Positions 1 through 33,237 of a stretch of DNA of 33,237 nt are shown here, in pieces (the first letter of the stretch is position 1; each line of letters starts with the position of its first letter). Origin of the DNA: a virus (lineage: Duplodnaviria > Heunggongvirae > Uroviricota > Caudoviricetes); the IMG/VR virus record IMGVR_UViG_2609459797_000007, one strand, 5' to 3'. The translations under genes were made by a program, and so were the position numbers. The notes under the pieces were generated by a model. That model ran no database searches and had not been told where the DNA came from. It saw only the letters and a list, made by a program, of their open reading frames with translations.

Positions 1-981
1 TTAAAGCGATACGCCACCGGCAAGCGGATTTAGTGAGACAGCATTTTGCAGATAGTCTGGCGAAAGATGCGCGTAAACCATCGTTTGCTGAATGCTGGCA
101 TGCCCTAAAATCTGCTGTAACGCGATGATGTTTCCTCCGTTCATCATGAAATGACTTGCGAAGGTATGACGCAGAATATGAGTTGCCTGGTTCGGTGGTA
201 TGTCTGCTTTTACCGCCTTCAGAGTCAGACAAAATTTTTCATAGTCCACTTTAAACAGTTTCGCGCTTGCCTCCTTTTTGATGAGCTTTTCCAGTTCGGC
301 AGAAATTGGAACAGTACGCTTTTTCCCGTTTTTGGTCTTCAGGAACGTCACACGGCAATTGACGATCTGCGAGGGCTTTAATGTTGCCAGTTCAGACCAT
401 CGCGCGCCGGTGCTGACTCCCAGAAGGGCAATCAATCTTGCATCGCCGGTTAATGCATTTAGCAAACTGCTGATTTCTTCCTTTTCCAGAAATGTCATTT
501 CTGGGTTTTCTTCAGTCAGTGGTGGCAATCCATGCACTGGATGGGTGCCGAAAAACTCTTCCAACTGAATCAACTTGGTGAACATGCCTGAAAAACGGTA
601 CATATCACGGTTAATTGTTGATGCCTTGATACCGTCACGAAGTCGCATAGAACGGTAGTCCATCAGAAGCCGTTTGCTCACGCGGCTAACGGGTATGTCA
701 CCGATGCCGCCGATCGTCTTCGTGAGGTGGTTAAATTCCTTCTCACCGTGTTCATGGTTTTGACCGTGATACTTCCACCAGGCATCCAGTAATTCAGATA
801 GAGATCTGCGATCTGTTCTCTGGCCCGCCCATTCTTTCTGATTAGCGTTCGCTAATGTGTAGCGCTCAAAGGCAACTGCTTCAGCTTTTCTTTCAAATTT
901 CCGGCGGATGCGACGTCCTTCACGCCCGCGGGGTCTGATATCCACTTCATAACGCCCATCATCGAGTCTTTTGATAGTCAT
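1..981 (-). CDS. int: Phage integrase, tyrosine recombinase (P2 Int-like)
   Basis: 326-aa ORF with the tyrosine-recombinase pattern: ARWSEL (Arg), HILRHTFAS (H-x-x-R) and VYAHL (catalytic Tyr) in the C-terminal third. Leftmost prophage gene; its stop codon is at the window edge. Confidence 0.9.
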   Translation of the reverse strand: MTIKRLDDGRYEVDIRPRGREGRRIRRKFERKAEAVAFERYTLANANQKEWAGQRTDRRSLSELLDAWWKYHGQNHEHGEKEFNHLTKTIGGIGDIPVSRVSKRLLMDYRSMRLRDGIKASTINRDMYRFSGMFTKLIQLEEFFGTHPVHGLPPLTEENPEMTFLEKEEISSLLNALTGDARLIALLGVSTGARWSELATLKPSQIVNCRVTFLKTKNGKKRTVPISAELEKLIKKEASAKLFKVDYEKFCLTLKAVKADIPPNQATHILRHTFASHFMMNGGNIIALQQILGHASIQQTMVYAHLSPDYLQNAVSLNPLAGGVSL

Positions 982-3246: not shown

Positions 3247-3414
3247 ATGACAATTCAAACAAATGAACGCGCGCACCTGCTTGGGTTGTTACGTATCAAA
3301 TTGACCTTACTGAAAAAAGAAAAGCTGTCCACCAATGAAATTTATCGCAGCCTGGAAGACTGGATCTACAACAGAGAAAAGGCCGCAGAAATCAAGGAGC
3401 AAAAAAATGGTTAA
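3247..3414 (+). CDS. Hypothetical small protein (55 aa, MTIQTNERAHLLGLLRIKLTLLKKEKLSTNEIYRSLEDWIYNREKAAEIKEQKNG)
   Basis: Not in the supplied ORF track (below size cutoff). ATG at 3247 with an AGGAGG RBS 7 nt upstream. Its 3' end overlaps the methyltransferase start. Confidence 0.4.
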   Translation: MTIQTNERAHLLGLLRIKLTLLKKEKLSTNEIYRSLEDWIYNREKAAEIKEQKNG

Positions 3415-4390
3415 TTCCCCTCTGATCTGGGCGGGCGGCAAGTCTCGCGCGATGCCTCATGTACTGGAGGCTTTGCCAAAGGGTGAATGTCTCGTTGAGC
3501 CTTTTGTAGGTAGTGGTAGTGTCTTTCTGAACACTGACTATAAAACCTATATTCTGTGTGATAGCAACGCAGCGCTTATGAACTTCTATTCAATATTGAA
3601 GAGCAATACTAAATCGTTGCTAGATGTCGCTGCTACTCTATTTGATGGCGGTAATAATGAAGATGCATATTATAAACGCCGCAATGAATTTAATGATTTT
3701 AATCGTGGTTTTCCCCAGCATAATAAAAAAACTTCTGATGGAAAGGTTTATTATCAGAGTGAACTTGTAAAGTTTGCAGCATTATTCCTTTATCTAAACC
3801 GTCATTGCTATAACGGTTTATACCGAGTGAATGGGAAGAATGAATTTAACGTTCCATTTGGTCGTCGCCGCAAGCCAATTTTCCCTGTTGCAGAGATCCA
3901 GCACTTTGCAAAACGAGCATATGAGAAAGGTGCTCAGTTTCTTTGCGCTGATTTCCGTTACACCATCCCTGTTGCTAGTCGCATATTTGAGCGCACAGTA
4001 ATTTACTGTGATCCGCCTTACCTGCCAGCGAGTAAAACGGCTGATTTTACCGCGTACGGCAAACCCTTCACTGTCGATGATCACCGTGACCTGGTTGAGT
4101 CATTGATTACCGCTCATAACAACGAAGGATGCCTGTCTGTTTTTTCCGGTAGCGATACCCCGGAAACCCGCAAAATTTACTACCCGTTCACCCTTAATTC
4201 ATTCGAAATCCGCCGATCTGTAGGGGCCAAATCTCGCAACTTGGCTGGCGAGGTGATCGGCTCTCTACGCGTTTGTGGTTGTTGTGGGCGTACTGGCGGC
4301 GGTTGTCCTGATTGCGGTGCTGTGATGGGTGATGCGACCTATTCAGAAATGGTTGCCTCTGGTGCTTTTGATGATCAGGAGGTGTTCTGA
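3407..4390 (+). CDS. dam: DNA N6-adenine methyltransferase (Dam-like, alpha-class order FxGxG then DPPY) with a Cys-rich C-terminal tail
   Basis: Motif I (VEPFVGSGSVF) and motif IV (VIYCDPPYLPASK) in Dam order. Start taken at ATG 3407 (AAGGAG RBS); the track's upstream start at 3335 lacks an RBS. C-terminal CGCCGRTGGGCPDCG looks like a zinc ribbon. Confidence 0.8.
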   Translation: MVNSPLIWAGGKSRAMPHVLEALPKGECLVEPFVGSGSVFLNTDYKTYILCDSNAALMNFYSILKSNTKSLLDVAATLFDGGNNEDAYYKRRNEFNDFNRGFPQHNKKTSDGKVYYQSELVKFAALFLYLNRHCYNGLYRVNGKNEFNVPFGRRRKPIFPVAEIQHFAKRAYEKGAQFLCADFRYTIPVASRIFERTVIYCDPPYLPASKTADFTAYGKPFTVDDHRDLVESLITAHNNEGCLSVFSGSDTPETRKIYYPFTLNSFEIRRSVGAKSRNLAGEVIGSLRVCGCCGRTGGGCPDCGAVMGDATYSEMVASGAFDDQEVF

Positions 4391-4563: not shown

Positions 4564-4572
4564 GGCGGATTG

Positions 4573-7011
4573 ATGACTTCAGTTCGCCGCGCCCATAGCA
4601 TGACCTCCATGCCGGGAGGCTCGGTTGAGCCAGCCCGGTATGCTTACGCCTGGAATGAGCCTAAACAGGCCATTTCCGTCGATAAGACTCCCGCTGTTGA
4701 CCTATATGAATTGGGTCAAGAGCAGGAGTTTTTCGCATGGGTAGAAGATACCCTCAAGCCGTTACCTTCTTTCATTCGCCGCCGCATTGCTTTTTACATA
4801 AATACCGTTCACGAAGATAAAGGGCGTCATATCGCAAAACTGAAGCTGCGCGATATCGTTAAGCGCGAGCTTCCACACGTCCGTAACGTCACGAATCAAT
4901 ACGCAGTACCAGAAGACAATGATTGGATTATTTTCTCTGAACTAAACCCACTATTTCACACGTTTGAAAATCTGCGTGAGCTAGCGCACCGCTTTAATAA
5001 TCTGGCTGATAGTACCGATGAAGATATTGATTTGTTGGCACAGGACATTGCTATTTATGCCAATGCCGTTTTGGCTGAAGTGAGTGAAGGCGCGAGCGTG
5101 TTTAGTGATGCTGAGTACGGCAAACGCATGGTGCGTGAAGGCTCTAGACTAATTGCGTATTTCAGGTTGGTGGCACCTTGGGCTAAGAAGCGCCGGATGG
5201 CGCCTGATGAAGCGGCGGCGGCAATACAAAAAACCATGCACGATCGCTTTTGGTCACGCCTTCTGCGCAAGTACGCCCGCCGCTGGCGTGAGCATTTGCA
5301 CATTGCTTATGGTGATGTGCGCCGCGATGTTTCACCGTATTGCAGTAAACACCACGTTACACAGTGGGATTCCCGCCGTAAGCGTAGTCGCGAAATTATG
5401 AGCCGTCTTGAACTTGAAGATCAGGTAACTGGCGAGCGCATTTCGCTGATAGAGCAGATTGATAAAAGTATTTCTAACCCTGAAAAGCGCCGCGTTGAGT
5501 TGATGACGCGCATTGGTGGCTTTGAGAAAGTGGCAACAGAAAGCGGTTTTGCCGGTAGTTTCTTCACGTTGACCGCACCGTCTAAATATCATGCTTTTAC
5601 AGCATTCGGGCATCGTAACCATAAATGGAACGGAGCAAGCCCACGCAAAACACAGAACTACCTTAATCACGTCTGGCAACTGATCCGCGCGGAGCTTGCG
5701 CGCCGTGAGATTCCTGTTTTTGGCCTTCGCGTTGCTGAATCTCACCATGATGCTACTCCGCATTGGCATGGCCTTCTGTTCACTGCCCCAGAACATACCG
5801 GCGAGTTGTTGGAAGTGATGGAAGACTACGCCACACGTGAGGATGCAGACGAGCTAACCGGCAAGACTGGCAAGCAACCGCGCTTTGAGCTTAAGCCAAT
5901 AGATCCGGCTTTGGGGAGTGCTACTGGCTATGTTGTTAAGTACATATCTAAAAATATTGATGGCTACGCGCTGGATGGTGAAAGCGACGACGAAAGCGGA
6001 CGTCCACTGAAGGAAACAGCAAAACACGCTACCGCCTGGGCTTCATGCTGGGGCATTCGTCAGTTTCAGTTTTTGGGTGGTGCGCCGGTGTCTGTCTGGC
6101 GCGAGTTGCGCCGCCTGAAGAATCAGGAAATGGCAGATCGTATCAGTCCGGTTTTCGGTGAGTTACATCGCGCCGCACATGCGGGGAACTGGCAGGACTA
6201 CATTACCTTGCAGGGTGGCCCGTTCGTGGCACGGAATAGGCTTGTGTTGCGCGCATGGTATCAGTACCGGGATGAGCCGAGCAGTTACGGCGAGTTTCAG
6301 AGAGTCATTAAAGGCGTAGTCATGCCAGCATCGACTATTCCTCCGGTTGAAACCCGTCTCCATTCTTATCGTATTGTCAAAATGAAGCCAAAAGCAGACG
6401 ACGACGCTGGTCGAGGTTTTGACCTTAAGGGCGCGCCCGCGCCCTCTTGGACTCGTGTCAATAACTGTACCGAGTACAAAAAACAAACAGATTCACCGCC
6501 TGTTTATCCGACAGATCTGACTGTGCCAGATACTGATGCACTCCCTGAACAATTTGAAATTGGTCAATTGAGCCGAGATCAGAGAAAACAAATTGCGGTG
6601 GACCTCAGAAATCACAAACCAAATCAGCGTGTTTCACCTGCTGATCAGTTTGAGGCGCTCGCTTTCAGCATCACTACCGGTGACTGTACCGACTATGACC
6701 GGGTTAGGGCAGAAAGTTATCTGAAAGCAGCACATGCAATCCGGCAGGAAGAAAGCACGGTGAGCGAGAATGTTGCTGCACTTGCTGAAAAGATAATGAG
6801 TTGGGCAAGGTTAAGAAAAATTAAGATTAACCCTGTGCAGGCGCTGAAACTAGCAAGGGGTGAGGAGGTTACAGCGCTCGATACGATTTACCGAGCCAAC
6901 CTAATCACTGGGGAACTTATTGTGACTGGCGTGGACATGCATTGGCGTAAAACTCTTGCAAGACATCAGACAGAGGATCTAACCCTCCGTTGGAGGAAAG
7001 CAATAGGTTAA
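4573..7011 (+). CDS. A: Replication initiation protein A (rolling-circle HUH endonuclease, P2 gpA family)
   Basis: About 812-aa ORF. HUH motif ATPHWHGLLFTAP and paired tyrosines in GYVVKYISKN (Y-x-x-x-Y). Size and position match P2 gene A. The ATG at 4573 is preferred over the TTG at 4570. Confidence 0.85.
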   Translation: MTSVRRAHSMTSMPGGSVEPARYAYAWNEPKQAISVDKTPAVDLYELGQEQEFFAWVEDTLKPLPSFIRRRIAFYINTVHEDKGRHIAKLKLRDIVKRELPHVRNVTNQYAVPEDNDWIIFSELNPLFHTFENLRELAHRFNNLADSTDEDIDLLAQDIAIYANAVLAEVSEGASVFSDAEYGKRMVREGSRLIAYFRLVAPWAKKRRMAPDEAAAAIQKTMHDRFWSRLLRKYARRWREHLHIAYGDVRRDVSPYCSKHHVTQWDSRRKRSREIMSRLELEDQVTGERISLIEQIDKSISNPEKRRVELMTRIGGFEKVATESGFAGSFFTLTAPSKYHAFTAFGHRNHKWNGASPRKTQNYLNHVWQLIRAELARREIPVFGLRVAESHHDATPHWHGLLFTAPEHTGELLEVMEDYATREDADELTGKTGKQPRFELKPIDPALGSATGYVVKYISKNIDGYALDGESDDESGRPLKETAKHATAWASCWGIRQFQFLGGAPVSVWRELRRLKNQEMADRISPVFGELHRAAHAGNWQDYITLQGGPFVARNRLVLRAWYQYRDEPSSYGEFQRVIKGVVMPASTIPPVETRLHSYRIVKMKPKADDDAGRGFDLKGAPAPSWTRVNNCTEYKKQTDSPPVYPTDLTVPDTDALPEQFEIGQLSRDQRKQIAVDLRNHKPNQRVSPADQFEALAFSITTGDCTDYDRVRAESYLKAAHAIRQEESTVSENVAALAEKIMSWARLRKIKINPVQALKLARGEEVTALDTIYRANLITGELIVTGVDMHWRKTLARHQTEDLTLRWRKAIG

Positions 7012-7300
7012 ACGTCAAATATCATTTTCGTCGTCTATGTTGCTATCATCACAAGCTAGATTGAGGTGAAATGATGGTAATTGAAGGCCAGCTTTATGGG
7101 GGTAGTCCAAGCCCAAGCAAAGGGGCATTTAGAAAGAAATGCTTATATTCTGTCAATTATTGTTTTTGATCTTGGAATATTAGTGGGCTTAATTTACAGT
7201 GGGAAAAATATCACTTAACCTTGAAGCAAATATTTTACAGGTTTGGGTTTTAAAAATTTTTCTTTCAAAATAGTTGAAAAATTGGACAGCAATGAAACAT

Positions 7301-7332
7301 GTTGGTAGAAATAAGCCGTTGATTTTACGGCT
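7301..7332. terminator. Hairpin AAATAAGCCGT-tgatttt-ACGGCTTATTT with flanking T/A runs; candidate bidirectional terminator between gene A and the accessory island
   Basis: Perfect 11-bp stem read directly, followed by TTTTG on the + strand. About 40 nt downstream of the island's last gene on the - strand. Confidence 0.45.
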
Positions 7333-7372
7333 TATTTTTGAACACAATCACTATAGAGAACTTATGTCAGAA

Positions 7373-8170
7373 TTAGTCATCTAATGCTCCATCAAAATAG
7401 ATCTTTAATGCATTAAATAATTCTTGATAATGATTGCTATTGAAATCACCAGCTTCCCAAAGTTTGTACTTATCCTTAATGGTGTTTTTTGCAAATCCCT
7501 CTTTAAGGGTTTTGTTTACCACGCCACTTTTATCAAGAGGCTTATGATAAACGTCAACATAGAAGCATCTTACATCAAAATTCGCCCCTGTTGGCTTTAT
7601 TACATTAATATCAGAATAGTAGCAATTGTCTTTAACATGTTGATACGATGAAATATTTAAATGACCTAAAAGAGGTAAGACATCTTTAATATTTCCTTGG
7701 GTCGTGCAATATGCTGTCCACTCTTGTTTATACAAATATTTCAGCCAGTTATTGAAAAGTGTATTAGATTTATCTTTTTGGTAATATATGATCAGGCCGC
7801 CACTATTATCTCTTTTTATATATCGTGTTAATAGTTGTAATAAACCTTCAAAAATTTTCTGGTATCCATAACCAATTTTAGCTTCTGCAATCCAAACAAA
7901 TTCACCACCATTAGTTTTAGTGGTGACAGTTATATCAACACTGCCATTCTTTTTTGTTTGTTCGGTAGCCCGATAACCAAAATGTCCCAGTGATGTTACT
8001 ATTGTATGGCTGAGTTTATCCTCATCATCACAATAGTATTTATCACTTGATGACTCCATGGTTTTTATTATTTCTTCGATATCTTTGAAAAGTTGATTAT
8101 GAAAATCACTTTCAGTTATAAAGTAATCACGACGAACGAGATTAGTAGCAAGTGAATTAGTGTTCATCAT
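7373..8170 (-). CDS. Hypothetical protein (265 aa) with a PD-(D/E)xK-like motif; third gene of the accessory island
   Basis: AT-rich ORF. GSVDITV followed 16 residues later by EFVWIAEAKIG (hydrophobic strand then E-x-K), the classic restriction-endonuclease-fold signature. Start overlaps the upstream gene's stop. Confidence 0.6.
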   Translation of the reverse strand: MMNTNSLATNLVRRDYFITESDFHNQLFKDIEEIIKTMESSSDKYYCDDEDKLSHTIVTSLGHFGYRATEQTKKNGSVDITVTTKTNGGEFVWIAEAKIGYGYQKIFEGLLQLLTRYIKRDNSGGLIIYYQKDKSNTLFNNWLKYLYKQEWTAYCTTQGNIKDVLPLLGHLNISSYQHVKDNCYYSDINVIKPTGANFDVRCFYVDVYHKPLDKSGVVNKTLKEGFAKNTIKDKYKLWEAGDFNSNHYQELFNALKIYFDGALDD

Positions 8171-8597
8171 AATTCACCAGGCAATAAAAACTGAGATATT
8201 TTGGGTCGAAATCTTCAATTTCAACACCATTGTCATTCACCGGAACTTCATTATTAGTCATGAAGTTATTGTACTCGTCCTGATGAATGTCAATTCGTTC
8301 ATTATCAACCATCTCATAACAATATTTGATCTCAAATAAATTAGAATTGCCACCACTAAAAAAGCGGACAATTTCCAATAAGTCGGATGTTTTTTTTGCT
8401 TGAGTAGCAATTTGTAAAGTATGAATAGTATAAATATCAAGCTCAATATTATCAGCAATATAATTTAGTAGGTTGTGATAGTTCTGCAATTTACTCGGTT
8501 TAAAAAAAACCGAGTTTTTGCATAGTTCATCAACCAACTCATGTTGCTTTAAAATAATGGGCAACATTTTTTTATACCGTTCTGCTAAGGATGTCAT
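8157..8597 (-). CDS. Hypothetical protein (146 aa, acidic); second gene of the accessory island
   Basis: ORF overlapping both neighbours (26 nt upstream, 14 nt downstream), consistent with a translationally coupled operon. GGGGTGA RBS 5 nt before the ATG. No recognisable motif. Confidence 0.55.
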   Translation of the reverse strand: MTSLAERYKKMLPIILKQHELVDELCKNSVFFKPSKLQNYHNLLNYIADNIELDIYTIHTLQIATQAKKTSDLLEIVRFFSGGNSNLFEIKYCYEMVDNERIDIHQDEYNNFMTNNEVPVNDNGVEIEDFDPKYLSFYCLVNYDEH

Positions 8598-9651
8598 TTA
8601 TCACCCCATAGTGTGAAACAGTGTCGGCCATTTTATTAAAATAAAAAGCACCACAGAATTGATTGTTTGCCCAGTCATTTTTATTAGGTTCAAATCCTAT
8701 TTCATTCGATAACGATTCTGAACCAATTTTATAATCAAAACGAGCAGAAACACCACATACCTTCAAATTGGATATAGTTGAAGTTGAAGTATTGCCTTTA
8801 TTCGTCTCAACCACTTTTCTGTTTCTGGCGTCATAACTAGGTTTCGTTCTACATTTAAGGCTAGCATCCTCATCACCAACAGGATCGACGAAATCTACCT
8901 GCACTAATCGGCCAAAGGAAGCATCGTTGTATATATTATTAATTGCTTTATAAAAATTGACAGTTTCTAAATTTAAAGAAACATTGTTTTCAGACAAAAA
9001 CTCTAAAAACTTAATTCTTAAATCAGTAATTGCTCGTTCGAAAACGCGACGACCAAGTTTACGATCAACCCTATATTCAACACGACTTAAGTCATTAGGA
9101 ATGAAAACTGTATTGAAAAATTGAACAGGGTATTGGTTTGAGCGTAATTTACTTCTCCCACTGATTTTCTTAATTAACACATAAGAAAAGATAATTGCTA
9201 CACCATCTCCCATGTTTTCGACAGAAGTAATGAAATGCCCTGGTGAAGCAGGTAGTCCACTATCTTCATCAAGCTTCATAGGGAATGCATCACGAAAACA
9301 TTTTTCATAATTAGAATAATTAGCAAACTGAGAAATAGCTTTAAGGTTTCCACCTCGAATAAAATCAATAGCATAGTAATGATTTACAGAGGTTATTATT
9401 TTTAGCAATAATAATTTGAGAGACGCCTCAGTTGCAAGCTTATGAGCCATTCCAGGATTAGAAAGCGTTCGTATGATACTGTCTTTAGTTCCTGCCCATC
9501 GGGTTCCGATCTGGAATCCATAAGGTGTTCCTACGCGACGAAAAAATCCTAATTCTTCAGTTTGCTCAAGAGAAGTAAGAATCTTTTCAACTTCTTTTTG
9601 GTTAAATGTAGGCGCAGATTGGGTGGCTCCAAGCGCAGTTTGAGTAGTCAT
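8572..9651 (-). CDS. Hypothetical protein (359 aa); first gene of the accessory island
   Basis: Long AT-rich ORF with no P-loop, no HUH and no TIR-like pattern that I can see. Sits between A and cos, where P2 carries tin/old. Confidence 0.6.
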   Translation of the reverse strand: MTTQTALGATQSAPTFNQKEVEKILTSLEQTEELGFFRRVGTPYGFQIGTRWAGTKDSIIRTLSNPGMAHKLATEASLKLLLLKIITSVNHYYAIDFIRGGNLKAISQFANYSNYEKCFRDAFPMKLDEDSGLPASPGHFITSVENMGDGVAIIFSYVLIKKISGRSKLRSNQYPVQFFNTVFIPNDLSRVEYRVDRKLGRRVFERAITDLRIKFLEFLSENNVSLNLETVNFYKAINNIYNDASFGRLVQVDFVDPVGDEDASLKCRTKPSYDARNRKVVETNKGNTSTSTISNLKVCGVSARFDYKIGSESLSNEIGFEPNKNDWANNQFCGAFYFNKMADTVSHYGVINDILSRTV

Positions 9652-9905
9652 TTATTCTTCATTCCATTGCTGAGGCAAGTTAAGTCTGTTTAGTTTACCC
9701 AAGCGTTGATTTTATACAACAAAACATGCAGCGTTTAAGCAAGAGATATTAGTGTTTTTTGACATTTTCTACATATTTTCAACTGCACAAGCGTGCACAA
9801 AAACGCACAATAAACAGGGTTTTATTTTTGATGGATCTCCGCAGGATCTGCGCTGGTTAGCAGCGGATCTGCAAGTGCACAAAAACAGGCGTGTTTGTTG
9901 CGCGC

Positions 9906-9924
9906 AGGTGACGGGGGGAAAGCC
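9906..9924. other. cos site, candidate cohesive-end sequence GGTGACGGGGGGAAAGCCC (P2/186 cos-like)
   Basis: G-rich 19-mer resembling the P2 cohesive end as I recall it (GGCGAGGCGGGGAAAGCAC). Lies immediately upstream of the Q-P packaging genes as in P2. Flanked by repeated GTGCACAAAAAC motifs near 9790 and 9872. Confidence 0.5.
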
Positions 9925-10110
9925 CGCGCGGCGGGGGGGGAAGGGGTATACCTCAAATATAGGGAAATTGGCGCAATTCTGGCGCGCTGCTGCGTTCTGT
10001 GTGTTGTGTGCGGGTAATGGCGTGTTTAGATTATGGGGCGCTTAGAATGGCGCTGGCGTGCCGTGTATTGATGTGATGCGGAGAGCGCCGCCGGGATGGC
10101 GGCGGGTTGG

Positions 10111-11172
10111 TTATTTCATGGTTTCCAGCAGGGCGTAAGGTTTAAAGCGGATCACTTCTTCCCCCAGCCAGTCGTTGACGTGCTTCAGCGCTTCCATTGC
10201 TGGCATTAGTTCGTTGATGGCAAACACGCGCGCGGCCTTCTCCACATCACCGAATGAGCCGTTGCCGTCCGGCATGGCCCCCATCAGTTGCGGTGGTACG
10301 CGGTGAGCCGCCAGAATGTCATCGCGTGTCGCTGATTTAATATTTAAAAACTCATCCTTTGCTGATATCTGGCTGAAGGGCATCAGTTGTACCCCGTCTT
10401 TACCGCCGCCTGGCGCGTGGATCACTACGTTCTTAAATGCCCCTTTGTTTCTGGCTCCCGCCAGTGTTTGCTGTATGACTTTTACGCCAGCGTCGTCCAC
10501 CTGTGATGTGCCGATATACAGAATGCATCCGGCATGAGATCCGTTTTCGTAATACATCTTGCGGAACATGTCCGCCGAGTGTGACAGGCTGGCTGACAAT
10601 AGCGCGCCCATGTACTCCGGCATCCCGTAGATCTCCTGATGAATGTCAGGGTTCAACACATGGCAGACAGAGCCGGTTTTAAAAGCTGATTCGTCTTTCC
10701 ACTGCCTGATAAACCAGTATGTATCCAGGTCAATGCCACGCCGGGTGTATTTCGCCGGGGAATGGCGGAGCGGTAGCAGCCCGCCTAGTCGGTTATTTCG
10801 TTCTTCCAGGTAGAAGTTGCCAAACACAAACCAGTCAAGCGCCAGGGCGGAGAACGTCTGGCGAGACAGTAGCGGGTGTGGGATGAAGAAACCCGCCAGC
10901 GCGTTGCGCTTGAAGTACAGCGCTGACTGGTGCCAGGACGCCTTGCCGAATGAGCGCGCAAGCCCGTACCAGTCCACCGGTGTTTCGTAATATCTGCCGT
11001 TATCGGCGCAATACATATTGTCGAGCAGGTCGTAAGCGTCAGCGACCTGGTATGGCCCATCAAAGGTGAAAGCGCTAAGGGCTGGATCGCGCTTCAGTGC
11101 TTCACCAATATCATGTTGCTGTGTACCGTCAGTAAGCATAGTCAGGCCGCTTTCGTGTGTTGTTGTGTTCAT
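10111..11172 (-). CDS. Q: Portal (capsid vertex) protein, P2 gpQ family
   Basis: About 353-aa ORF next to cos and downstream of the terminase ATPase; its ATG overlaps the P stop (TAATG). Size and synteny match P2 Q. The track's longer start at 11253 overlaps P and is unlikely. Confidence 0.8.
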   Translation of the reverse strand: MNTTTHESGLTMLTDGTQQHDIGEALKRDPALSAFTFDGPYQVADAYDLLDNMYCADNGRYYETPVDWYGLARSFGKASWHQSALYFKRNALAGFFIPHPLLSRQTFSALALDWFVFGNFYLEERNNRLGGLLPLRHSPAKYTRRGIDLDTYWFIRQWKDESAFKTGSVCHVLNPDIHQEIYGMPEYMGALLSASLSHSADMFRKMYYENGSHAGCILYIGTSQVDDAGVKVIQQTLAGARNKGAFKNVVIHAPGGGKDGVQLMPFSQISAKDEFLNIKSATRDDILAAHRVPPQLMGAMPDGNGSFGDVEKAARVFAINELMPAMEALKHVNDWLGEEVIRFKPYALLETMK

Positions 11173-12896
11173 TAAAACTCTCTTACGGAACCGCCGCCGC
11201 TGCCGTTCTCGCGTCCAAGTGGCTCGTTGATGATTGCCAGCATATTTGCCCAAGCTAAGTCGCCATGACTGACGCCGCGCGCGCGATCGGTGTCATAGGT
11301 AATTTGTCCACCGGCGGTGGTGATTTTCCTGACGGCGTTGAATGCTGACACTAACGCCTGTTCACTACGGTCATACTCCCAGCGGCCCGCGCGGATCACC
11401 TGCTGCATTTTGAGTACCAGAGTGCGCTTTGATGACAGCGACATGATGAAACAGACCGCCGCCGGGAAGAATTTCTTGACCAGTTGCCAGACCGCTTCAC
11501 CAATGCCGGTACCGTCAATTGCGATGTGCCGGACGTTGTATTTAATGGTCAGGTCTTCGATCACTTTGGCCTGTTCTTCAAACTCCATCCCGCGTAGCTG
11601 GCGCGTCTCTATCGTGCGGAACTTGCCGCCACTGACCAGGGGAGGGGTAACCACGGAAACAGCGCCGCTGTCACCGTTGCCACTGCCGCCGTTGGCGTCG
11701 TAGCCTATCCAGACTTCACGATCGCCAAGCGGGCGGGGGGCGTAGGGTTTCCAGTCCTGCCAGTCGTCGTAGCCGTCCGCGCCGCACGTCAGTAGCTGAT
11801 TAAGTGAGAAAACGGATTCGCCTTCTTTGACGAACTCACACATGTACAGGTTGGTGTATTCATCCGGGGTATTTTCGTCCTGAATTTCTTCCAGATCGGT
11901 GAACTCCCAGCCGTGGTCGATCACGTCCTTCAGGGTGACAATCTGCCGCCAGGTTTTGTCCGGGCACAACAGGCCGCTGTTGAGTGTCTTCCAGCTTGTG
12001 TCGAAGTCTACCCGGCTGGATTTGGCCCGCTTCTCATTCCAGCGCTTGCCCGTCCAGAACGGGTAGGCTTCATGGTTTTCGCTCGATGGCGTTGAAAAGT
12101 AAGTGCGCGTAAGCCCTTTCAGGGTTGCCATAGCTCCAGCTACTTTGCGAAGGTTTGCAAAGTTACCTACCCAGAAAAACTCATCAAAAAACAGGTTGCC
12201 GGTGTAGCTCTGCGCGGTAGCGGCAGACGTGCCGAGAAAATGCAATTCAGCGCCGTTCGACAATAGAATTTTGTCACCGCCTTTTAGTTCTACGTCTACC
12301 TCTTCGGCAATCTTCTGGATGAAGCCACGGAACTGGTGCGCCTGGCGACGCGACGCTGATAGAAAAATCTGGTTGCGCTGATATCCGTGCTTAATGTCAT
12401 CTCGCAGCGCCTGTAATAGTGCCTCGCGGGCAAAGTACCAGGTTGCGCCAATCTGGCGGCTTTTCAGGATCATGCGGTTTCGTTGCTGGCGCTGTTCAAA
12501 CCATCCCTGCTGATGCCAGGCCAGAGAGTCCTGAATCTTTTCCCGTAGCGCGGCGATCTGCGCTTCGGTGAAGTGGTTTTTCTTCTTGCTCGCGCGCGCC
12601 TTCTTGAAGGGTTGCGCCGGTTGCCCTTCTGCCAGTTTCTTCACCTGGCGCGTGAGCGCGTCGATTTCTTTCAGATCGCTGCCGGTCTTCGTTGGTTTCA
12701 TCGCGATTTGGCATAACCGGGCATCAATAGATTGCGTGACGCGCTGAATTGCGGGCGTTTCGTCCCATTCGTCGCGTTTCTTCCACGAATAAACCGTGTT
12801 TGAACTGATACCCATCAGGCGTGAAATCTCTGCTGGCGGGTAGCCCTGCCAGTAAAGCTGCTTTGCTCTCTGTCTTACAAATGCGTCCTGGATCAT
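11172..12896 (-). CDS. P: Terminase large (ATPase) subunit, P2 gpP family
   Basis: Roughly 575-600-aa ORF divergent from O. Start taken at the internal Met (12896) because the track's start at 12980 would run through the late-promoter dyad. Synteny with P2 P. Confidence 0.8.
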   Translation of the reverse strand: MIQDAFVRQRAKQLYWQGYPPAEISRLMGISSNTVYSWKKRDEWDETPAIQRVTQSIDARLCQIAMKPTKTGSDLKEIDALTRQVKKLAEGQPAQPFKKARASKKKNHFTEAQIAALREKIQDSLAWHQQGWFEQRQQRNRMILKSRQIGATWYFAREALLQALRDDIKHGYQRNQIFLSASRRQAHQFRGFIQKIAEEVDVELKGGDKILLSNGAELHFLGTSAATAQSYTGNLFFDEFFWVGNFANLRKVAGAMATLKGLTRTYFSTPSSENHEAYPFWTGKRWNEKRAKSSRVDFDTSWKTLNSGLLCPDKTWRQIVTLKDVIDHGWEFTDLEEIQDENTPDEYTNLYMCEFVKEGESVFSLNQLLTCGADGYDDWQDWKPYAPRPLGDREVWIGYDANGGSGNGDSGAVSVVTPPLVSGGKFRTIETRQLRGMEFEEQAKVIEDLTIKYNVRHIAIDGTGIGEAVWQLVKKFFPAAVCFIMSLSSKRTLVLKMQQVIRAGRWEYDRSEQALVSAFNAVRKITTAGGQITYDTDRARGVSHGDLAWANMLAIINEPLGRENGSGGGSVREF

Positions 12897-12961
12897 GCGG
12901 TGTCCTCTCGTTTCGATGGAGAGATTAACCCGCGCGCGTGGGCCGTTCCCGCTGTTTGGGT

Positions 12962-12988
12962 TGTGGGCTTTCTCTGACAACTAAAACG
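12962..12988. promoter_or_regulatory. Late promoter element: TGT-N12-ACA dyad (12962-12979) within the conserved 18-mer TCTCTGACAACTAAAACG (12971-12988), in the divergent P/O region
   Basis: TGT-N12-ACA is the established binding element for the Ogr family at P2 late promoters. The same 18-mer recurs at 30614-30631. Confidence 0.6.
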
Positions 12989-21524: not shown

Positions 21525-22824
21525 ATTCTTTGCCCTGCTGACTAATCAGGGGGCGGCAAAATTATCAAATATGGCTGCATTGGGTGAGAAGTTAGAAATC
21601 ACCTCGCTCGCAGTTGGTGATGGCGGCGGTACATCACCAACACCAAATCAGGCACAGACAAGGCTGGTTAATGAGGTACGCCGTGCCCAGATTAACTCAC
21701 TGTCAGTGGACGAAAAAAACGATAGTCAGATTATTGCTGAACAGATTATTCCTGAATCCGTTGGCGGGTGGTGGATTCGGGAGATCGGACTCTTTGACGC
21801 TGATGGCATCTTGATTGCTGTAGCCAACTGCCCGGAAACCTATAAAGCGACAACAGAGGAAGGGTCGGGGCGTACACAGGTTATCAGAATGATGCTGACG
21901 GTATCGAGTACAGACGCCGTTACCCTTAAAGTTGATCCTTCAATTGTGCTGGCAACCCGCCAGTATGTTGATAACGCTGTCATTGAAGTGAAGAACTACG
22001 CTGATGGACTCATGCGCAGCCACGAACAGTCGCGCAACCATCCTGATGCAACCACTACGGCTAAAGGTTTTACGCAGCTTAACAGCAGTGTGACGGATGA
22101 CCGCGATACACAATCGGCAACCCCGAAAGCCGTAAAAATTGCGATGGATAACGCGAATGCGCGGTTGGCTAAAGATCGCAATCTCGCCGATTTACCTAAC
22201 CCGGCACTGGCGCGCCAGAATATGCAATTAGGTGATAGCTCGACGAAAAACACCGGTACAACTGCCAATACTGTTGCAGCGGGTGATGATGCACGTATCA
22301 CCGGATCGATGCAGAAAAGCCAAAACGGTGCGGATATTCCAGACGTGGCGAAGTTTCTCCAAAACCTTCGTTTAGGAGCGGGCGCTCCGCCGATAGGAAT
22401 TCCGTTCTTCTGGCCGTCGACTGCAATGCCTAATACGGTTATGGATGAGTGGTCGGATATGGTCTTTTTGAAATGGAATGGCGCAACCTTCTCAGCGACT
22501 GAATACCCTAAACTGGCAAGGATTATTCCAGGACTGAAATTAAATGATGTGCGAGGCGAGTTCCTGCGTATTTGGGATGATGGAAGGGGCGTAGATAACG
22601 GAAGGGGGTTACTCAGCTTTCAGGCAGCAACATCTTTCACACAGTATGCTGGTAACTATGACGTAGGCTCCGGTCATGCAATAGGTAATCATGATGGTGT
22701 AGTCGATTACAGTCCTGGATTTTCCAGATTTCCTTATCCCGGCCCAGCTATTGGTGATGGTGTTAACCATGTAACCGTAAGACCACGTAACATCGCATTT
22801 AACTTTTTAGTAAGGGCTAAATAA
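21514..22824 (+). CDS. H: Tail fibre protein H: constant N-terminal part fused to the currently expressed variable C-terminus
   Basis: 436-aa ORF following I. A recombination site lies inside it (22348-22371), so the C-terminal ~150 aa are part of an invertible segment. Confidence 0.85.
   Translation: MAAKFFALLTNQGAAKLSNMAALGEKLEITSLAVGDGGGTSPTPNQAQTRLVNEVRRAQINSLSVDEKNDSQIIAEQIIPESVGGWWIREIGLFDADGILIAVANCPETYKATTEEGSGRTQVIRMMLTVSSTDAVTLKVDPSIVLATRQYVDNAVIEVKNYADGLMRSHEQSRNHPDATTTAKGFTQLNSSVTDDRDTQSATPKAVKIAMDNANARLAKDRNLADLPNPALARQNMQLGDSSTKNTGTTANTVAAGDDARITGSMQKSQNGADIPDVAKFLQNLRLGAGAPPIGIPFFWPSTAMPNTVMDEWSDMVFLKWNGATFSATEYPKLARIIPGLKLNDVRGEFLRIWDDGRGVDNGRGLLSFQAATSFTQYAGNYDVGSGHAIGNHDGVVDYSPGFSRFPYPGPAIGDGVNHVTVRPRNIAFNFLVRAK
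22348..22371. repeat. Left inversion crossover site (hix/gix-like): TTCTCCAAAACC-TT-CGTTTAGGAG
   Basis: Quasi-palindromic 24-26 bp site inside H; matches the right site at 24161-24185 with a complementary central dinucleotide. Confidence 0.65.
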
Positions 22825-23417
22825 TGACAGTCATTTTCGATAAAGACGGGCTGGCTGTTGAAGCCGGAAGTATTCGTGTTTATTACTTTCATCCTGTGAC
22901 AAAGGAATATGTAGGATGGTCTGACGAATTCATTAATATCGGAGTGAGTATGCCAGGTAACTCTACTAATATTGCTCCGGGGAATGAAGTGGCAGGAGAG
23001 GTTATGGTATTTACAGGAAAAGACTGGAAGCGACAAAAAGACCACCGGGGGGAGACTGTCTGGTCTACTGATGACGGTAGCGCCATCACCGTGAACTACA
23101 TTGGCTCTGTTCATGATGGATACACTAATATTGCGCCATCCACCCCCTACGATAAGTGGGACGGGGAAAAGTGGGTAACGGATACCAAAGCCCAGCACGC
23201 GGCAGATAAAGAAGTAGCAAAACAACAACAGCAATCTCTGATAGATTCAGCAATGGCATCAATCGGCATGATACAGCTTAAATTACAGGCAGGGCGTAAA
23301 TTAACCACTGCTGAAACTACGAGGCTAAATTCTGTTCTGGACTACATTGACGCGGTGGAGGCAACTGATACCAGCACCGCGCCAGATATTAAGTGGCCTC
23401 TTCCCCCGGAGTGGTAG
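22824..23417 (+). CDS. G: Tail fibre assembly (chaperone) protein G, active orientation
   Basis: 197-aa ORF immediately after H; its 3' end converges and overlaps with the alternative chaperone gene on the other strand, as in Mu-type G segments. Confidence 0.8.
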   Translation: MTVIFDKDGLAVEAGSIRVYYFHPVTKEYVGWSDEFINIGVSMPGNSTNIAPGNEVAGEVMVFTGKDWKRQKDHRGETVWSTDDGSAITVNYIGSVHDGYTNIAPSTPYDKWDGEKWVTDTKAQHAADKEVAKQQQQSLIDSAMASIGMIQLKLQAGRKLTTAETTRLNSVLDYIDAVEATDTSTAPDIKWPLPPEW

Positions 23418-23814
23418 GCCAAACGGGTTTTTCGGTATCGACTCGCATCAGTAATACCCTGTATTTTTTCCATTCTGACAAAGCGGCGGTTTCTTCTTCC
23501 GTCGCTACTCCTGCATCAACAGCATCCTGACGCCAGTTAATCTCTGAGTCAGCCCGCATACGTAAGTTGGCCTTTCTTAATTCAGCGACAGCGCTAAGTT
23601 CTTCCTGAGTTGGTGGTGGAATATCTACCCATGCTGGCATTCCTGCTATTACATTTCTGTATTTACCTTCGGGTGGCTCCTGCATGAATTCAGTTGCAAC
23701 AGAGTCTTCTATTTCTATTCCATCGTTTGGCCACTCTCCTGCCTTTTGATAGGACGACTTCAGCTCTACAGGAAAGAAAGCATTTTTCTTGGCACTGAAT
23801 ACATATTTTTGCAT
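23389..23814 (-). CDS. Alternative tail fibre assembly protein (G'), silent orientation within the invertible segment
   Basis: 141-aa ORF on the opposite strand; its start follows the stop of the alternative fibre C-terminus (23816). Confidence 0.7.
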   Translation of the reverse strand: MQKYVFSAKKNAFFPVELKSSYQKAGEWPNDGIEIEDSVATEFMQEPPEGKYRNVIAGMPAWVDIPPPTQEELSAVAELRKANLRMRADSEINWRQDAVDAGVATEEETAALSEWKKYRVLLMRVDTEKPVWPTTPGEEAT

Positions 23815-23815
23815 G

Positions 23816-24172
23816 TTAACGTCCTATAGAAATATAACTAAATCGGTATTGCTGAGAATTGTCACTCGTTGATACACGCCATGACGAATTGCTGATATGT
23901 TCAAAATTTACAGAAAGTACAGGCGTAATCGGTCCAGAAGGATTTGACTGGACGGCATCAGACATGACGCTGATAGAAATCAAGGGTTGAGTCGGAAACG
24001 GTATAGGGAAGTTACCGCTGATAAAACGAGTCGTGTTTCCTGAATATGTACCAAACTGCACAATGTGCCCGCTTGGTAATTTGAACCACCCTGTGCCAGA
24101 TGCAAAAGCGCCCATATCCGGTATCTGATTTGCACCTGTCCCCACCTCTCTTTTTGCTGCTTCTTTCAAACC
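23816..24172 (-). CDS. Alternative tail fibre C-terminal cassette (H'), promoterless and start-less, expressed only after inversion
   Basis: Open frame from the right recombination site down to a stop at 23816, encoding ...GANQIPDMGAFASGTGWFKLPSGHIVQFGTYSGNTTRF.... The junction sequence parallels the H junction (FLQN versus FLNV). Confidence 0.65.
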   Translation of the reverse strand, partial: GLKEAAKREVGTGANQIPDMGAFASGTGWFKLPSGHIVQFGTYSGNTTRFISGNFPIPFPTQPLISISVMSDAVQSNPSGPITPVLSVNFEHISNSSWRVSTSDNSQQYRFSYISIGR

Positions 24173-24185
24173 AACGTTTAAGAAA
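24161..24185. repeat. Right inversion crossover site (hix/gix-like): TTCTTTCAAACC-AA-CGTTTAAGAAA
   Basis: Resembles hixL (TTCTTGAAAACCAAGGTTTTTGATAA) as I recall it. Located about 55 bp upstream of the invertase start codon. Confidence 0.65.
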
Positions 24186-24240
24186 ATGCAGATTTGCACC
24201 CTGGCTGGCATCATTCCGGCTTTTGCATGAGGGAAAGCAA

Positions 24241-24810
24241 ATGCAGGTTGGCTATGTACGCGTATCAACAAATGACCAAAACACTGCATTACAGCGTGAC
24301 GCGCTGGAGCGCTCAGGATGTAAGCTGATATTTGAAGATAAAATAAGCGGCAAAACGTCAGATAGACCGGGGCTGAAGAAATTATTAAAAAGCCTGTCTC
24401 CAGGGGACACGCTTGTTGTTTGGAAGCTGGATCGGCTTGGACGAAGTATGCGGCACCTGGTTGTACTTGTGGAGGAGTTGCGCCAGCGATCGGTAAATTT
24501 CCAAAGCCTGACGGATAGTATTGATACATCAACTCCTATGGGGCGCTTTTTCTTTCATGTTATGGGGGCGCTAGCTGAAATGGAGCGTGAATTGATTGTT
24601 GAGAGGACGCGAGCGGGCCTGAAGACTGCCAGAGAGCAGGGGAGGATTGGCGGGCGTCGCCCAAAGCTATCTGATGATCAGTGGGCGCAAGCGGGGCGGT
24701 TGATTGCTGCCGGTGAGACTCGCCAGCGGGTTGCCTTGCTTTTTGATGTCGGGATATCGACGTTATACAAAAAATTCCCCGCCACGGTGAGGGTTGAGGC
24801 GGGGAAATGA
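24241..24810 (+). CDS. Serine DNA invertase (Hin/Gin/Cin/Pin family)
   Basis: N-terminal MQVGYVRVSTNDQN (catalytic Ser), GDTLVVWKLDRLGRS and a C-terminal HTH. Start taken at the internal ATG 24241; the track's 24100 start would run through the crossover site. Confidence 0.9.
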   Translation: MQVGYVRVSTNDQNTALQRDALERSGCKLIFEDKISGKTSDRPGLKKLLKSLSPGDTLVVWKLDRLGRSMRHLVVLVEELRQRSVNFQSLTDSIDTSTPMGRFFFHVMGALAEMERELIVERTRAGLKTAREQGRIGGRRPKLSDDQWAQAGRLIAAGETRQRVALLFDVGISTLYKKFPATVRVEAGK

Positions 24811-32254: not shown

Positions 32255-32334
32255 TCCTCAATTTGCCTGCTGCTTAATGCATTGCAGATGATTTGCTTCC
32301 ATTATACTAGCGTCAGTTGATAGCGGGAGTATTT

Positions 32335-33237
32335 ATGAATCAATCTTATGGACGGCTGGTCAGTCGGGCGGCGATTGCTGCGACGGCGATGGCTTCGCTG
32401 CTATTGCTGATTAAAATTTTTGCATGGTGGTATACCGGGTCGGTGAGTATTCTCGCCGCGCTGGTGGATTCGCTGGTGGATATCGGCGCGTCGTTGACGA
32501 ATTTATTGGTGGTGCGATATTCCCTGCAACCTGCCGACGATAATCACTCGTTTGGTCACGGTAAAGCTGAGTCCCTCGCGGCGCTGGCGCAAAGTATGTT
32601 TATCTCCGGTTCGGCACTATTCCTGTTTTTGACGGGTATTCAACATCTGATATCTCCAACACCGATGACAGATCCAGGCGTCGGGGTTATCGTGACAATT
32701 GTGGCGCTAATTTGTACGATTATCCTTGTCTCGTTTCAGCGTTGGGTGGTGCGGCGGACGCAAAGCCAGGCGGTGCGGGCTGATATGCTACATTACCAGT
32801 CTGATGTTATGATGAACGGCGCAATTCTGCTGGCGCTGGGGTTGTCCTGGTACGGCTGGCATCGCGCCGATGCTCTGTTTGCATTGGGAATCGGCATCTA
32901 TATTTTATATAGCGCGTTACGCATGGGATATGAGGCGGTACAGTCATTACTGGATCGCGCATTGCCTGATGAGGAACGGCAAGAAATTATTGATATCGTG
33001 ACTTCCTGGCCGGGTGTTAGCGGCGCTCACGATCTTCGCACGCGGCAGTCAGGGCCGACCCGCTTTATTCAGATTCATTTGGAAATGGAAGACTCTCTGC
33101 CTTTGGTTCAGGCACATATGGTGGCGGATCAGGTAGAGCAGGCTATTTTACGGCGTTTTCCGGGATCGGATGTAATTATCCATCAGGACCCCTGTTCCGT
33201 CGTACCCAGGGAGGGTAAACGGTCTATGCTTTCATAA
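32335..33237 (+). CDS. fieF: Cation-efflux pump FieF/YiiP (cation diffusion facilitator family); host chromosomal gene
   Basis: About 300-aa ORF; the translation ([58 protein letters not shown]...) matches enterobacterial FieF as I recall it. Multiple TM helices and a C-terminal cytoplasmic domain. Start taken at ATG 32335. Confidence 0.9.

Follow-up and report, generated by a model that had tools for sequence, protein, structure and literature searches.

Gene C, a 265-aa reading frame in the low-GC island of a P2-type prophage, very likely encodes a protein with the fold and catalytic competence of an active Mg2+-dependent endonuclease, as judged from a predicted structure and its conserved residues, and this protein probably serves as the effector of a three-gene anti-phage cassette, A-B-C. 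The window, that is, the whole 33,237-nt stretch analysed (IMG/VR record IMGVR_UViG_2609459797_000007), is a P2-type prophage of E. coli/Enterobacteriaceae (Table 1). With an integrase at the left end and a host cation-efflux gene at the right, the prophage boundary falls at ~31.8-32.3 kb and the contig includes host flank. The island in which the original prediction placed the gene is borne out as a 2.7-kb segment of markedly lowered GC content. It lies in the GpA-GpQ defence hotspot of P2, the slot that is occupied in phage P2 itself by old and tin. Of the defence hotspots in P2-like phages, this interval is the main one (Rousset et al. 2022, PMC9122126; Moura de Sousa et al. 2026, PMC13586616). 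Because P2 hotspots also hold non-defence cargo, including partition systems and toxins (PMC9122126), the location is only suggestive as a pointer to a defence role of the cassette.

Two non-coding flanks frame the genes of the island. The flank on the gpA side (7012..7372, 361 nt) is AT-rich, its ORFs being limited to 25-52 codons, and the portal-side flank (9652..10110, 459 nt) carries G+C-rich runs at about 9900..9960. The outer part of the latter (9824..10100) is the only piece of the region that complete E. coli genomes match at ~91% on the DNA level and probably represents, on account of these matches, a conserved hotspot border used for cassette exchange. Elsewhere in the prophage, the tail-fibre region (22824..24810) shows a dip in GC content to 0.455 and, with its oppositely oriented fibre genes and a recombinase gene, looks like an invertible host-range switch of the Gin/Cin type.

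Table 1. Features of the window and of the A-B-C cassette
Feature	Position	Strand	Remarks
Integrase	1..981	-	Left end of contig
D12-class N6-adenine DNA methyltransferase (Dam-like)	3335..4390	+	Pfam E 3e-51
gpA replication gene	4570..7011	+	Pfam Phage_GPA
Low-GC cargo island between gpA and Q	7012..9750	.	GC 0.337 vs 0.52 in rest of window
Hairpin, 11-bp stem, 7-nt loop, then U-rich tail	7310..7336	-	37 nt past stop of gene C
Gene C, predicted PD-(D/E)xK nuclease, candidate effector, 265 aa	7373..8170	-	ORF
Second invariant motif of C, P211-L-D213-K-S215-G216	7523..7540	-	Outside canonical nuclease core
C catalytic-core motif span, E50 to Y117	7820..8023	-	Invariant in 29 orthologs
Gene B, 146 aa, small, acidic (pI 4.74; C-terminal half pI 4.05)	8157..8597	-	ORF
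Gene A, 359 aa, basic (pI 8.96), predicted RdgC-like fold	8572..9651	-	Candidate DNA-binding sensor or scaffold
Portal gene Q	10111..11253	-	Pfam Phage_portal
Terminase	11172..12980	-	Head, tail and baseplate genes come after
Tail-fibre assembly gene	22824..23417	+	
Gp53-like tail-fibre C-terminus	23816..24532	-	Strand opposite to assembly gene
Serine recombinase/invertase (Resolvase + HTH_7)	within 24100..24810	+	
Host cation-diffusion-facilitator (cation-efflux) gene, Cation_efflux + ZT_dimer	32317..33237	+	Right end of contig

The suspicion that C is a nuclease arose from two stretches of its translation, GSVDITV and EFVWIAEAKIG, which indeed correspond to residues 76-82 and 90-100 of the 265-aa ORF (NCBI also calls a 264-aa form, with the next ATG, at 8167, as its start). 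The 16-residue spacing originally reported separates D79 (codon 7936..7934) from E96 (7885..7883), and K98 follows at 7879..7877; the core extends from E50 (8023..8021) through Q112 (7837..7835) to R116-Y117 at the end of the span. A loose pattern of this kind, D-x(10-30)-[DE]xK, appears in 94% of shuffled versions of C and in 21 of the 38 long ORFs of the window, and is therefore worthless as evidence. Its strand-flanked form, hDh-x(8-25)-hh[DE]xK, is found in 9.8% of the shuffles and, among the same 38 ORFs, in gene C alone; with an upstream E and a downstream Q added, the share of shuffles falls to 2.5%. Taken alone, the motif in the sequence is thus only suggestive, and it becomes convincing because of its conservation across homologs.

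This conservation holds at two depths. Across 29 orthologs of C, down to 27% identity, residues E50, D79, E96, A97, K98, Q112, R116 and Y117 show no variation. An exhaustive profile search of 1.84 billion representatives delineated a superfamily of 662 representatives clustered at 50% identity, of which 447 have E ≤ 1e-10; in the 146 domains that were aligned from the 148 best of the 662 representatives, E50, G76, D79, E96, K98 and Q112 are each present in 146/146, R116 in 143/146 and Y117 in 144/146. Outside the canonical core, a second motif, P-x-D-x-S(-G), is invariant in the 29-sequence ortholog alignment and, where the region aligns across the superfamily, P211 is kept in 96/96, D213 in 93/93 and S215 in 85/85 sequences. 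P211-x-D213-x-S215 lies in the sole internal low-confidence loop of the structural model (pLDDT < 50 at residues 213-217) and could be an additional active-site or ligand loop, a loop for docking of a partner, or an element that one subunit of an oligomer supplies to another in trans. Neither this second motif nor the breadth of the family was part of the original prediction.

The AlphaFold2 model of C, built on the 29-sequence alignment (pLDDT 84.6, pTM 0.75), contains the alpha-beta-beta-beta-alpha-beta core of restriction endonucleases, composed of helix 50-63, strands 67-72, 78-86 and 89-99, helix 103-117 and strand 123-130, to which a C-terminal helical hairpin is added in this clade. E50 opens the first helix, D79 starts the second strand, E96-x-K98 ends the third, and Q112, R116 and Y117 are placed on the second helix. 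Structure prediction, the check proposed along with the PD-(D/E)xK-like signature, therefore leaves the nuclease interpretation standing at the computational level, the predicted core and the conserved catalytic residues agreeing with each other. The best structural matches of the model are the type II enzymes BamHI, OkrAI, BstYI, BglII, SwaI and EcoRI, the group of BamHI, OkrAI, BstYI and BglII being the nearest within PD-(D/E)xK enzymes, and the modification-dependent AspBHI, MspJI and McrC are among the matches as well. Given a fold resembling type II enzymes and a partner predicted to bind DNA, DNA is favoured over RNA as the putative substrate.

At the sequence level, the same protein stands apart from what is catalogued. 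It is a "hypothetical protein" in all databases and differs from the solved PD-(D/E)xK members in having no detectable sequence similarity to them and in its extra conserved P-x-D-x-S loop. Neither Pfam nor NCBIfam gave a match to C at E ≤ 1, DpnII-MboI and Mrr_cat included; ten distant relatives compared with Pfam produced one sub-threshold PDDEXK_9 match (E 0.036, 14.5 bits vs a cut-off of 25.5), and sequence and profile searches of the PDB yielded no meaningful link of C to solved structures. Foldseek, insufficiently sensitive here, returned no match of the model at E ≤ 1e-3, its weak matches including Cap4, PaqCI, Kpn2I, AspBHI and MspJI. The absence of a significant link to known nucleases in the Foldseek and sequence searches, together with the occurrence of the strand-flanked motif in about 10% of shuffles, could be taken to mean that the motif is fortuitous or that C is a catalytically dead scaffold and not a nuclease; in view of the superfamily-wide conservation we regard this as very improbable. 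By its predicted fold and catalytic residues, C is a member of the PD-(D/E)xK superfamily that belongs to no curated family.

An effector role is indicated by the company this domain keeps elsewhere. The C-type domain forms the C-terminal module of nine large proteins of 712-1226 aa (P0084, P0090, P0094, P0108, P0111, P0112, P0159, P0181 and P0080), six of which possess an N-terminal NACHT domain above the Pfam threshold together with HEAT repeats. P0111 has HEAT repeats and P-loop/NACHT matches at sub-threshold level only, and the two remaining fusions carry NB-ARC with TPR in one case and HEAT repeats only in the other. One solitary fusion gene (locus L035, 5001..7931) is found in a cyanobacterial genome beside a DUF433/PIN toxin-antitoxin pair. 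In bacterial immune receptors of the NLR/Avs type, terminal nuclease domains are effectors switched on by oligomerisation. The placement of the C domain at the C-terminus of NACHT or NB-ARC proteins with HEAT or TPR repeats therefore provides independent evidence for a role as output module, supports the earlier proposal that the 265-aa protein is the likely effector, and suggests that the domain is controlled by induced proximity on a scaffold.

In the window, a compact operon on the minus strand ends with C; within it, A and B overlap by 26 nt and B and C by 14 nt. The hairpin downstream of C is a probable operon terminator: the RNA of 7300..7372 on the minus strand folds with -17.5 kcal/mol (z = -4.43), and 0/200 shuffles were as stable. 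A consensus sigma-70 site was not found in a promoter scan of the minus strand upstream of A. Protein A is predicted to adopt an RdgC-like, RexA-related fold, which supports the idea that the 359-aa protein is a sensor or regulator. Sequence comparison gives no echo of this relationship: Pfam, RdgC included, produced no RdgC match in 25 members of the A family, only scattered chance matches; hhalign of the A-family profile gave a probability of 0.2% against E. coli RdgC and no signal against lambda RexA; and sequence and profile searches of the PDB found nothing meaningful for A. The assignment of A is consequently one of fold only, and its putative binding of DNA is deduced from the model.

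Gene B has an alternative start, the ATG at 8567, which lies 4 nt past the stop of A, yields 136 aa and is used by most gene callers; homologs of 144-145 aa also exist. Since the additional codons coincide, in a different reading frame, with those for the conserved C-terminus of A, conservation cannot settle the choice between 8597 and 8567. The family of B comprises 13 homolog clusters; its alignment shows aromatic positions that never vary and a conserved EIEDF-PKYLSFYC motif at the C-terminus. Searches of Pfam and the PDB found no match for B, and Pfam scans of the individual family members gave scattered chance matches. Scans of all three proteins with Pfam, NCBIfam and PADLOC returned only a domain-level match of C to PDC-S54, along with PHROGs of unknown function.

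The three genes travel together. In 23 of 24 loci with a C ortholog, collected from E. coli, Serratia, Rahnella, Shewanella, Vibrio vulnificus and IMG/VR contigs, A, B and C lie side by side with order and strand preserved, and the 24th locus ends at a contig edge. The Enterobacterales loci always place the cassette between Q and gpA; the Shewanella cassette is carried by a small element bearing gpA and an integrase, and that of V. vulnificus adjoins a filamentous prophage. Genes of 132-164 and 353-373 aa likewise precede distant stand-alone relatives of C (208-216 aa) in 5/5 contexts with enough sequence, forming cassettes of 373/136/209, 353/143/213, 367/132/208 and 373/164/209 aa, and homology to A and/or B was detected by HMM in four of the distant loci (L025/L026, L028 and L029). 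Among neighbours at other loci are a methylase with GmrSD, an nSTAND NTPase, SocA_Panacea, toxin-antitoxin genes and integrases. The variant of the window was found in 0/5,426 complete E. coli genomes and its sister variant in 2/5,426. The linkage across loci and distant relatives indicates that the three-gene module is ancient, widespread and mobile, though rare in E. coli.

One metagenomic contig resembling a defence island (L027, 1705..6642) merits separate mention. It contains the distant C relative of the 353/143/213-aa cassette and, directly upstream, a second set of genes of similar sizes in another order (211, 147 and 351 aa), as well as genes for an nSTAND3 NTPase, Endonuclease_NS and SocA_Panacea. 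The second set may be a rearranged copy of the module; narrow HMMs revealed no homology.

Such a distribution bears on the possibility that the cassette serves the DNA metabolism of its own phage, with prophage replication, recombination or induction aided by a structure-specific nuclease and by an RdgC-like protein that modulates RecA or recombination. RdgC regulates RecA and replication restart, RexA, independently of its part in exclusion, also shifts the lysis-lysogeny switch of lambda (PMC11077077), and the cassette adjoins the replication gene gpA, all of which would fit. However, the slot is a non-essential, hypervariable cargo space, the island has a composition foreign to the phage, P2-type phages very rarely carry the cassette, which also occurs outside them, beside a filamentous prophage and in contexts resembling defence islands, and the C domain is fused to NLR-type NTPases; such a housekeeping function is therefore rather improbable.

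Carriage by many kinds of mobile elements would also be expected of an addiction module, with C as toxin, B as its antitoxin, encoded directly upstream and translationally coupled in the manner of many type II toxin-antitoxin pairs, and A as a DNA-binding regulator or third component, whose main role would be the stabilisation of the prophage or mobile element and for which phage exclusion would be a by-product of abortive infection. The small size and acidity of B, its overlap with C, the toxin-antitoxin genes, such as PhdYeFM and PIN, that adjoin related loci, and the lack of an NTPase or obvious sensor enzyme in the cassette are consistent with this. Nevertheless, B matches no antitoxin family and has no recognisable DNA-binding domain, the 350-370-aa protein A is conserved as strictly as B and C although a simple toxin-antitoxin pair would have no need of it, and the NLR fusions indicate an immune-effector role for the C domain. 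We consider an addiction module unlikely as the primary function, while noting that it overlaps with a defence role and that the two are not mutually exclusive.

The cassette has a precedent in a line of a published table. Entry #145 in Table S5B of Rousset et al. 2022 (PMC9122126), labelled "DUF5939" and "DpnII-MboI", is recorded with 14 occurrences in the P2 hotspot. All three proteins of the cassette recur in this entry (144/354/280 aa), with a nuclease 58% identical to C, and it constitutes a sister clade; the variant of the window forms a lineage of its own, DNA identity being ~68% across half the length. Entry #145 is absent from the lists of tested systems in that work (PMC9122126), and Pfam hmmscan did not reproduce either label. 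The nuclease idea for the cassette accordingly goes no further in that work than the table label of #145. A non-exhaustive search of the literature found no description of the A-B-C system and, apart from RexA, no paper on an RdgC-like defence protein.

Among catalogued candidates, PDC-S54, a phage-defence candidate of PADLOC, shares the nuclease core, a match that also favours an effector role of C: residues 12-137 of C align with positions 233-356 of the 410 in its profile (E = 1.4e-7), and other members of the C superfamily match it too. PDC-S54 is, however, a single-gene candidate of ~410 aa, of which only the C-terminal third matches C, the N-terminal part being absent there; A and B have no PADLOC match. 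Rst_3HP, which we take to be the DefenseFinder name of the "hp + hp + hp" system, was rejected as the identity of the cassette, as BLASTP of A, B and C against its three published proteins gave a best E of 0.7; the sizes differ as well (about 345/355/225 vs 359/146/265 aa). This validated system also comes from the P2 hotspot and protects against P1 (plasmid pFR109; Rousset 2022, PMC9122126). Identity with Tin was likewise rejected (BLASTP, best E 1.6), and the OLD ATPase-TOPRIM proteins are set apart by architecture, A, B and C having no ATPase or TOPRIM domain in Pfam and no Walker A motif. Hachiman (HamA), McrBC (McrC) and Avs/NLR systems use nuclease effectors too, but the cassette has no helicase, ATPase or GTPase; with no P-loop NTPase or helicase detected in A, B or C by Pfam, assignment to the NTPase-nuclease systems (Hachiman, Gabija, Lamassu, McrBC, Avs/NLR) was discarded, an NTPase being present only in the distant fused relatives of C. 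It follows that activation cannot be NTP-driven. RexA of lambda RexAB is an RdgC-like DNA-binding sensor, of which A is a candidate relative by predicted fold. A polytopic membrane effector like RexB is not part of the cassette, since the maximal 19-residue Kyte-Doolittle hydropathy is 1.25 for A, 0.54 for B and 0.37 for C, all below the range of membrane segments.

The "DpnII-MboI" label on the sister clade, the type II and modification-dependent enzymes among the structural matches of C and the D12-class methyltransferase in the window might together point to a solitary restriction endonuclease, either of type II and protected by the Dam-like methyltransferase or of type IV and modification-dependent, with A and B as specificity or accessory subunits. 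Yet this methyltransferase is present, among the 24 cassette loci, in the window and the two closest phage relatives (L014 and L015) only; it is missing from the other P2-type, Shewanella and Vibrio loci, and the gene lists of the other cassette loci contain no methyltransferase near the cassette. Pairing of the two as a type II restriction-modification system was rejected on these grounds, and C differs from PD-(D/E)xK restriction enzymes in having no cognate methyltransferase linked to it. Because methyltransferase and cassette do not co-occur, and as C has no Pfam restriction-enzyme match at E ≤ 1 and no recognisable domain for DNA recognition or the reading of modifications, a solitary or Dam-paired restriction enzyme appears quite improbable. 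The methyltransferase gene itself, in the early region just upstream of gpA and with a slightly lowered GC content (0.42-0.45), is by its restriction to these close relatives a gene of the phage backbone, unlinked to the cassette, and may function in anti-restriction or self-protection.

As a whole, the observations are best explained by C being an active nuclease effector of an anti-phage A-B-C cassette, a reading that we hold to be probable, if far from certain. The defence role of the cassette would follow by association, from the hotspot, its carriage as mobile cargo, the defence-gene neighbours and the NLR fusions. C would be a metal-dependent PD-(D/E)xK endonuclease of a large family that domain databases do not describe, and A-B-C an NTPase-free cassette carried as cargo by P2-type prophages and other mobile elements, most likely for the restriction of competing phages. 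It is tempting to speculate on how the parts might cooperate. A, as an RdgC-like protein, may bind DNA as a ring- or horseshoe-shaped dimer and recognise DNA typical of infection, be it free ends, intermediates of replication or recombination, or unprotected incoming DNA. The acidic B would link A with C, serving as an adaptor or else holding C inactive like a brake, and C, brought together or released on the bound DNA, would then cut it. These specifics, with A sensing DNA as a dimer, B coupling and C cutting the bound DNA, are offered as a tentative and rather doubtful scheme, in which we infer the nuclease activity, the DNA substrate, the physical A-B-C complex, the trigger and the anti-phage phenotype.

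Prophage defence hotspots are already known to contain nuclease effectors, and the assignment of C as a nuclease is by itself unremarkable. What is unusual is the combination of a predicted RdgC-like partner, the absence of an NTPase and an effector family held in common with NLR-like proteins. The family of C is large, is represented in no Pfam, NCBIfam or PDB entry and has a second invariant motif; a defined effector family of this kind helps to annotate many "hypothetical" genes. The common nuclease domain links a small prophage cassette to STAND immunity. On a broader and more speculative view, which we see as possible though not as the favoured outcome, A-B-C would be a widespread unnamed NTPase-free immune system, in which an RdgC-like clamp senses infection-specific DNA and licenses a nuclease family also used by NLR-type receptors as a death or restriction effector.

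For the RdgC-like fold in phage exclusion, lambda RexA is the only precedent, and its trigger is the subject of a decades-long debate. Three soluble proteins with nuclease activity as the read-out would be much easier to dissect than RexAB. If the proposed reading is true, the RdgC/RexA fold would be a recurrent sensor of phage DNA, and the cassette would provide a tractable soluble model for what RexA-type proteins sense. If validated, it would also become a new named system for DefenseFinder and PADLOC, and one more occupant of the P2 hotspot would be explained.
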